Assembly: GCF_003334335.1 (NCBI RefSeq)
Contig: NZ_QOWQ01000152.1
Length of the DNA stretch: 743 nucleotides
Direction: 5' to 3' (one strand)
DNA from: Escherichia coli
GTDB lineage: Bacteria; Pseudomonadota; Gammaproteobacteria; Enterobacterales; Enterobacteriaceae
Within the stretch, counting starts at the first letter, position 1. Each line of letters opens with the position of its first letter. The notes beneath the pieces were generated by a model that saw only the letters and a program-made list of their open reading frames with translations, did no database searches and had not been told where the DNA came from. A program made the position numbers and the translations under genes. Positions 1-743 of this stretch are shown piece by piece.

Positions 1-464
1 GGTAACGCAACACCTGCTGGCTGAGGAAAGGCTTTACCATCGGTTTCCGCTACGGATGCAGCTTCCGGCTCTGCCGGTAAATCAGCGCCCGGTATGCAGT
101 AACGAAATTTACCACCCTGATTCACGCGAATCAGACGCCCTTTGCTGATTGCCATGGCCAGCGATGAATTCGCCCGGCGGGAGGTAATCCCGAACATCAG
201 TGCCAGCTCATCCGCCGTTTGTGGGCCATGTTGTTCAATCGCCTCAGTCAGCATTTGCGCTGTCACTTTCGGTACCGGTGACACCGGTTCACTTTCACCA
301 GCCTGAATCAGCCACCACATCGAACCCTTGTTATCCGCTTCACCGCGGCGCTTCAGTTTCCACAGTTCGTTGACCGCATCTTCACGGCTGATTCCAAGGC
401 GGGCCGCCACTACCTGTGAAGAGGCTCTTTTCAGTGCTTTCAGTGCGTCAAATACGGTTTCCAT
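1..464 (-). CDS. Partial CDS: start codon in window, 3' end runs off at position 1. Hypothetical protein with two tandem winged-helix-like segments; putative DNA-binding regulator, family not recognised.
   Basis: Hand translation of the reverse complement from ATG at 464..462 gives 154 codons with no stop to the window edge: [160 protein letters not shown] Shine-Dalgarno lies 7 nt upstream of the ATG. Codon usage is rich in CTG, GCG, CCG, GAA and AAA. The product call is inference from sequence pattern only. Confidence 0.8.
263..296. repeat. 15-bp palindrome (ACCGGTG-a-CACCGGT, 274..288) flanked by 8-bp direct repeats (tcactttc at 263..270 and 289..296)
   Basis: Read directly. The palindrome has 7-bp arms around a single central base, with GGTACC overlapping at 271..276. 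The whole structure lies inside the downstream CDS, in the segment encoding [12 protein letters not shown] between the two winged-helix-like segments. Confidence 0.85.
429..446. repeat. Perfect tandem duplication of a 9-bp unit (plus strand tttcagtgc x2)
   Basis: Read directly: 429..437 and 438..446 are both tttcagtgc. On the minus strand this is GCA CTG AAA twice, encoding ALK-ALK at residues 7..12 of the downstream CDS. Confidence 0.9.
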
Positions 465-471
465 TAAAATT

Positions 472-477
472 TCCTCC
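472..477 (-). promoter_or_regulatory. Shine-Dalgarno / ribosome-binding site for the downstream CDS
   Basis: Plus-strand tcctcc at 472..477 reads GGAGGA on the minus strand, with a 7-nt AU-rich spacer (AAUUUUA) before the ATG at 464..462. Confidence 0.75.
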
Positions 478-497
478 GACAAAATCGTTTCTCAGAT

Positions 498-737
498 TCA
501 AATAAAACCAGCTGCCTTCCGGCGTTCGTATTCCTGTTTCAGCCGTTCAATTGGCGTTGGCCCTTGCGGGTGTTTCGCCCCTTCCAGTTGTCGTCGCACT
601 GGCGGAACACTCATCCCGTTACCAACATGCTTTGCCCATTTCGTCAGTTGCCGTTCCGCAAGTCGTTTTAACTCACCCTGCGTCATCTGGCGCTCAATCC
701 CTCTGGTACGCATTTCGAGGCAGATGTGGTACAGCAC
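498..737 (-). CDS. Hypothetical small basic protein (79 aa as given by the ORF track, using GTG at 737..735). Start is uncertain and the frame remains open to the window edge at 743.
   Basis: Supplied ORF track; my re-translation matches it, with TGA stop at 500..498. Net charge is strongly basic (about 16 K/R against 8 D/E). Codon usage is mostly enterobacterial with some rare codons (AGA, GGG, CGA). Alternative in-frame ATG starts are at 713..711 and 686..684; none has a convincing Shine-Dalgarno (AGAGGG sits about 12 nt upstream of the ATG at 686). Codons 740..738 (P) and 743..741 (Q) are in frame with no stop, so the gene may start beyond the window. Confidence 0.55.
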   Translation of the reverse strand: MLYHICLEMRTRGIERQMTQGELKRLAERQLTKWAKHVGNGMSVPPVRRQLEGAKHPQGPTPIERLKQEYERRKAAGFI

Positions 738-743
738 AGGCTG

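Follow-up and report, generated by a model that had tools for sequence, protein, structure and literature searches.

A 743-nt stretch of Escherichia coli DNA (hereafter the window) encodes a protein directly downstream of a phage helicase-loader gene, and the question is whether this single chain carries two winged-helix domains and binds DNA with both. The original prediction described tandem, internally similar winged-helix-like segments at 90–458 and proposed that together they could bind a bipartite or direct-repeat operator without dimerising. That span corresponds exactly to residues 3–125 (residue 3, 458..456; residue 125, 92..90). Of the two peptides quoted, the second is residues 67–125 as numbered, but the first is residues 2–53 rather than 3–54.

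The prophage locus and the gene family

A prophage of E. coli JNEC-KY176 (locus L001) contains the window at 100% identity, and both genes in the window lie on the minus strand. The 3′ end of a replication protein P (helicase-loader) gene, comprising the last 81 codons and the stop at 500..498, occupies 498..743 (minus strand) and was assigned from translation, RefSeq and PHROG. At the 100% identical locus it is RefSeq WP_000139447.1, 'replication protein P', and the fragment matches phrog_109 'P-like helicase loader' (E 4.5e-54). The Shine-Dalgarno motif of the second gene, GGAGG (477..473), lies in a 33-nt intergenic spacer read from the sequence (465..497, minus strand), 8 nt ahead of the ATG start (464..462, minus strand). 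This open reading frame exits the window at its left edge after 154 codons, with 84 codons more outside; the window holds the 5′ two-thirds of a ydaW-family gene (Pfam DUF1627, phrog_630). The full coding sequence is L001:8280–8996, and the complete 238-aa protein is identical to WP_001529168.1, the RefSeq 'DUF1627 domain-containing protein'.

The L001 early region encodes, in order, a cI-like repressor, a Cro-like protein, YdaT, a DnaT-like initiator, P, the ydaW-family protein and nin-type genes (hok, RusA). The host region is a Rac/lambda-like E. coli prophage early region. A promoter scan of the window found no promoter-like site, which fits co-transcription of the ydaW-family gene with P. 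A terminator scan of the window returned two weak terminator-like hairpins, not above shuffled expectation; a hairpin of this kind, with five pairs and a T-run, lies at 523..507 (minus strand) within the last P codons. An Rfam search of the window gave no match at E ≤ 1. Beyond the window, the next gene (L001:8993–9310, 105 aa, GTG start) overlaps the ydaW-family stop by 4 nt, which suggests translational coupling. Its product is a helix-turn-helix protein matching phrog_323 'transcriptional regulator, D5-like' (E 2.3e-25).

Other elements were recorded elsewhere in L001. The prophage immunity region contains a RelE/RelB toxin-antitoxin pair and a YdaT-family gene (L001:4894–5375 and 6261–6686). 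Two clusters of 10-bp direct repeats, GTCACGnnnn, lie outside the window inside the DnaT-like/O-like gene (L001:6883–6921 and 7164–7213); they were reported as six overlapping 19-nt copies, equal to about four plus five 10-bp units. By analogy with lambda ori, these clusters resemble iterons of a replication origin situated within the initiator gene. A repeat-based operator search across L001:5300–9400 recovered the O-gene iterons and chance-level pairs only, with no candidate operator.

The fragment in the window matches PF07789 (DUF1627; E 1.6e-37, residues 76–154), and the protein matches phrog_630 (E 4e-116, residues 1–237). With these family HMM matches and its early-region prophage context, the protein belongs to YdaW/DUF1627 and is a tandem winged-helix prophage protein. 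The search for relatives covered 1.84 billion cluster representatives and returned 155 at E ≤ 0.001. An alignment of 33 full-length homologues with 21–72% identity (alignment A1) was used for family-wide comparisons. At least part of the window (P end and ydaW start) is matched by 1,950 of 5,426 complete E. coli genomes, and at least 80% of it by 691 of the 5,426 searched. Many prophages of E. coli, Shigella and Salmonella carry YdaW-family genes, and relatives of Stx phages are among them. The gene is an early-operon accessory gene in Rac/lambda-like prophages of Enterobacterales. It follows the loader gene in L001, in K-12 Rac (L007; ydaV then ydaW), in phage POCJ13 (L008) and in an Actinobacillus phage (L009). 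In L003 it occupies the same early-right slot after an unannotated 315-aa protein, and L006 is an exception in which it comes after RecE.

The K-12 Rac YdaW is of the same family, has both winged helices and occupies the same place after a helicase-loader gene. However, K-12 ydaW (L007:4753–5313) continues with unrelated sequence after '...AEPKAASV' (residue about 157), and the C-terminal helices are missing. The ydaW of a Rac-type phage record is 74% identical.

The ydaW-family gene is an ordinary prophage gene; it has been catalogued before, as have its family and the MarR-like label. YdaW appears in published lists as an uncharacterised MarR-type predicted transcription factor (PMC4797297, PMC9308461). 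Labels in PHROG, NCBIfam, PADLOC, AFDB50 and the literature are limited to 'unknown function' or predicted regulator. NCBIfam gave no match to the protein, PADLOC gave a single noise-level match (E 0.008), and a PDB sequence search with the single protein as query gave noise only. A fold search of AFDB50 returned uncharacterised DUF1627 proteins only, and models of many YdaW relatives are already present in AlphaFold DB. The present analysis adds a domain map, an unannotated N-terminal winged helix, diverged domain charge and a variable repeat number.

Two winged-helix domains and the internal repeat

The structure of the 238-aa protein was predicted with AlphaFold2 (AF2) using alignment A1 (mean pLDDT 82.3). 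Winged-helix domain 1 comprises residues 1–53 (306..464, minus strand), with helix 4–11, strand 13–15, helices 16–23 and 27–39, and strands 43–46 and 49–52 (pLDDT 95–98). An inter-domain linker of variable length in A1 follows (residues 54–67; 264..305, minus strand; pLDDT about 70–80). Winged-helix domain 2 comprises residues 68–125 (90..263, minus strand), with helix 69–79, strand 82–83, helices 84–91 and 95–107, and strands 112–116 and 119–123 (pLDDT 94–97). The order alpha1-beta1-alpha2-alpha3-beta2-beta3 is thereby predicted twice, at residues 4–52 and 69–123, with pLDDT 94–98 (AF2, DSSP). The remaining residues in the window, 126–154 (1..89, minus strand), begin a Pro/Ala/Glu-rich, disordered acidic linker (pLDDT about 50–60). 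In the complete protein this low-confidence linker spans about residues 128–190, and beyond it lie two C-terminal helices, residues 193–222 and 224–237 (pLDDT 91–94). These conserved basic helices are outside the window and were invisible to the author of the original prediction. The pTM of 0.41 leaves the relative arrangement of the domains undefined. The protein is very probably modular, with two tandem winged-helix domains followed by a disordered acidic linker and then by conserved C-terminal helices of basic character.

Database models agree with two domains. Domain 1 is covered by phrog_16668 (residues 1–58, E 2.4e-30) and is unannotated in Pfam, where the DUF1627 match begins at residue 76, in domain 2. 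The Pfam tandem winged-helix model EAP30 spans both domains with a weak match (residues 10–113, E 0.009), and Pfam AlkZ-like matches weakly at residues 65–136. The top Foldseek matches in the PDB are tandem winged-helix proteins, namely DIP2311, ScpB, UFL1/DDRGK1, SelB, ESCRT-II and AlkX/YcaQ, with E values of 3.5e-5 for 3lmm and 2e-4 for ScpB. Two winged-helix domains of one pattern, as originally proposed, are borne out by the AF2 topology, Foldseek, the EAP30 model and a profile-profile match.

The proposed internal similarity held for family profiles but not for the single sequence. A single-sequence BLASTP comparison of the two halves was not significant (E 0.70), and Smith-Waterman and global alignments of the single sequence against shuffles gave z of 0.01 and 1.34. 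Using hhalign, family profiles of residues 1–56 and 66–127 aligned over 52 columns with probability 89.7%, E 1.8e-6 and score 30.8. By comparison, 150 column-shuffled profiles scored 9.2 ± 1.9 with a maximum of 15.0, and the reversed profile scored 10.4. The alignment pairs LGISRED with FGITSRR, G41 with G109 and WWLI with FRYCIP, the register put forward in the original prediction. Neither half gave any hhalign match to the C-terminal region. Judged from these profiles, the internal similarity is real, though visible at the family-profile level only. These comparisons show that domains 1 and 2 share common descent or pattern.

The number of modules varies among relatives. Cluster representative P0139 has one winged helix, domain 1, which runs straight into the C-terminal region. 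Cluster representative P0164 has a third winged helix, which matches the domain-2 profile (97.7%, E 1.4e-12). Copy numbers of one to three among YdaW relatives fit repeated duplication and loss of one module.

Comparison with known winged-helix families

The original prediction likened the shape to that of MarR-like regulators. Each single YdaW domain folds as MarR-, ArsR-, FeoC- and AspA-type domains do, with rmsd of 1.2–2.9 Å, and MarR/ArsR-type domains superpose over 53–66 columns (Foldseek). This likeness of single domains does not extend to membership of the MarR family in Pfam. Neither PF01047 nor PF12802 matched at E ≤ 10, and the only MarR-labelled match was a weak one to phrog_1687 'MarR family' (E 2.4e-4, residues 3–47). 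In MarR structures, N- and C-terminal helices flank one winged helix and form the dimer interface. Each YdaW domain is predicted by AF2 as a minimal winged helix without such flanking helices, and the MarR architecture was rejected. Membership of the PapI/FaeA family, whose general shape the original prediction also invoked, fell away; no FaeA Pfam match was found at E ≤ 10, and the PapI homologue 2htj gave E 0.23 with the YdaW family profile.

Known tandem winged-helix proteins share the consecutive arrangement. ScpB, ESCRT-II Vps22/Vps25 (EAP30), the SelB C-terminus, AlkX/YcaQ and DIP2311 have two consecutive minimal winged-helix domains and were matched at E 3.5e-5 to 1e-2. However, their structures superpose on the YdaW model with an overall rmsd of 8–14 Å, the relative domain orientation appears to differ, and there is no family-level sequence relation. 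They also lack the acidic linker and basic C-terminal helices of YdaW. For ScpB, the Foldseek E value of 2e-4 is accompanied by rmsd of 8–14 Å and TM of 0.21–0.33, with the inter-domain geometry of the model itself undefined (pTM 0.41). An ScpB-like protein would share the relative arrangement of the two winged helices and have a kleisin partner.

The YdaW family profile also matches AspA, ZBP1 and the Z-alpha/Z-beta domains of ADAR1. In Z-alpha domains, which bind Z-DNA or Z-RNA, helix 3 has a conserved Asn173 and Tyr177, numbered as in ADAR1. These positions face small, non-conserved residues of the YdaW family consensus, and Z-alpha identity was rejected.

Domain charge, conservation and proposed function

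The two domains differ in charge and conservation across the 33 homologues. Domain 1 has a mean net charge of −1.4. Its helix 3 averages −1.55 and carries a positive charge in only 9% of homologues; conservation on this helix is confined to core hydrophobics, and no exposed polar residue is conserved. Domain 1 holds one of the family's two most conserved stretches, with L34 and W50 invariant in A1 and conservation highest on helix 1, strand 1 and helix 2. Domain 2 averages +3.7 and carries a positive charge in every homologue (100%), with helix 3 at +2.0 and the wing at +3.15. Conservation reaches 80% or more at R97, S101 and G109, R97 and S101 being the Arg and Ser placed at the start of helix 3. 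The acidic linker averages −5.1. The C-terminal helices average +5.55 and contain a conserved EIRRTK motif in which R201 is invariant.

These features suggest different roles for the two domains. Domain 2, always basic, with its conserved Arg and Ser early in helix 3 and its positively charged wing, is the likely nucleic-acid-binding module; the basic C-terminal helices may assist. Domain 1, with a mostly acidic helix 3 and its strongest conservation on helices 1 and 2 and strand 1, more probably serves protein contacts or structure. The family-wide argument against DNA binding by domain 1 is weaker for WP_001529168.1, whose domain 1 has a net charge of +3. The ydaW-family gene, right behind the helicase-loader gene, has a Shine-Dalgarno sequence of its own from which it is translated. 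In the proposed model, its product would act in early phage development as a DNA-tethered regulator or adaptor rather than as a monomer reading two half-sites. This functional model, drawn from sequence features, is tentative, and we lean slightly towards doubting it. The broader explanation that we prefer, a modular early-operon product of the ydaW family with diverged domains, appears evenly balanced between right and wrong.

ScpB, ESCRT-II and SelB are pure protein or RNA binders. Their place among the closest tandem winged-helix structures counts against the predicted DNA-binding model. They are also consistent with a different reading, in which the protein is not a transcription factor but a protein-targeting accessory or anti-defence factor. 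Its winged helices would serve as protein scaffolds, as in ScpB and ESCRT-II, or as decoys against a host or rival-phage system, for example by blocking a retron toxin or by Ren-like counter-exclusion. The acidic character of domain 1 and of the long linker across the family favours such a role, as does a published screen. Overexpression of K-12 ydaW relieved the toxicity of RcaT, the retron-Sen2 toxin, in the TIC screen that identified it as a blocker (bioRxiv 10.1101/2020.06.22.160242; cited again in PMC11951105). The K-12 protein has both winged helices and lacks the native C-terminus, and its block of RcaT points to a protein-targeting role. However, the result comes from an overexpression screen without a mechanism, and ydaW is not named among the 11 blockers re-tested in the source (bioRxiv 10.1101/2020.06.22.160242). 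PADLOC, moreover, gave only noise for this protein, and the uniformly basic domain 2 and C-terminus suggest contact with nucleic acid.

Protein targeting is also favoured by the position of the gene in the ren/nin slot after the loader. Lambda Ren, a small winged-helix protein of basic charge, is encoded right behind P, in the slot of the ydaW-family gene. Domain 2 matches positions 16–65 of the 116 in the Ren profile phrog_142 (E 6.4e-5) and aligns weakly with a Ren family profile by hhalign (52.7%, E 1.4e-4), a resemblance that likewise speaks for such a role. The hhalign score between domain 2 and Ren (26.4) is lower than that between domains 1 and 2 (30.8) and higher than that between domain 1 and Ren (15.6). 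Ren differs in having only one winged helix, and the conserved motif at its C-terminus, ECRxSxxMKRVLA, has no counterpart in the ydaW-family protein. In the Shigella phage POCJ13 (L008:3501–4717), a DUF1627 gene is followed immediately by a 143-aa Ren-like gene (gp19) that has the Ren C-terminal motif. Membership of the Ren family was rejected on the alignment of the winged-helix part only, the missing motif, the lower score and the side-by-side occurrence of Ren and DUF1627 in POCJ13; a fold-level likeness was kept. The similarity to Ren is at a generic winged-helix level, and a true Ren-like gene adjoins DUF1627, which weighs against a Ren-like function. A protein-targeting accessory or anti-defence role is possible but unlikely.

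A hybrid form of this idea is a good deal less probable. YdaW proteins, with their one to three winged-helix repeats, could be modular counter-defence factors or adaptors rather than transcription factors, with the conserved, mostly acidic domain 1 and the acidic linker engaging a host or rival-phage protein such as RcaT and the basic domain 2 and C-terminus tethering the complex to nucleic acid. The domain map provides a rational basis for mutagenesis and helps with follow-up of the retron-toxin-blocker hit.

In the original prediction, both winged helices would contact DNA, and one chain could recognise an operator that is bipartite or a direct repeat with no need to dimerise. Each chain does have two bona fide winged-helix folds in the AF2 model, and in WP_001529168.1 itself both domains are net positive by residue count, at about +3 each. 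DNA binders such as AlkX/YcaQ and Pol III C34/TFIIIC are among the tandem winged-helix matches. The direct 10-bp iterons in the nearby O-like gene would also suit such a reader, although iterons are normally the initiator's sites. The family record speaks against it, in that helix 3 of domain 1 is acidic on average (−1.55), positive in 9% of homologues and without a conserved exposed polar residue, while domain 2 is always basic. A fixed spacing between half-sites agrees poorly with the highly variable length of the inter-domain linker. Relatives with one or three winged helices occur naturally, and the conserved C-terminal helices are left unexplained. A monomer reading two sites is improbable, and the division of roles between domains 1 and 2 remains our preferred reading. 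An accessory role in the replication module, modulating origin firing or helicase loading with the upstream O-like protein and P, is very improbable; in most contexts the loader gene is its direct upstream neighbour, and a part in DNA replication is described as likely for lambda ren, which occupies this slot and whose product also interacts with Rex proteins (bioRxiv 10.1101/2021.04.19.439022), but the YdaW family pairs with unrelated replication modules (DnaT-like and P; YdaU and DnaC-like YdaV; others), follows RecE instead in L006, and is not tied to one initiator or loader.

The C-terminal helices could mediate oligomerisation. To probe dimerisation, two C-terminal regions joined by a Gly-Ser linker were modelled with AF2, giving pTM of 0.50 and mean pLDDT of 45.6–62.6 over five models. 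Between the acidic linker and these helices, 25 of the 33 homologues in A1 share the motif E-x-[VIL]-x-x-[IL]-P-x-F-[TV]. The acidic tip of the SSB tail is DDDIPF. The motif may loosely recall this tip, a speculative likeness, but it is internal and spaced otherwise. In WP_001529168.1 this site, at residues 170–181 (L001:8787–8822) and beyond the window, is degenerate (LQPSIT).
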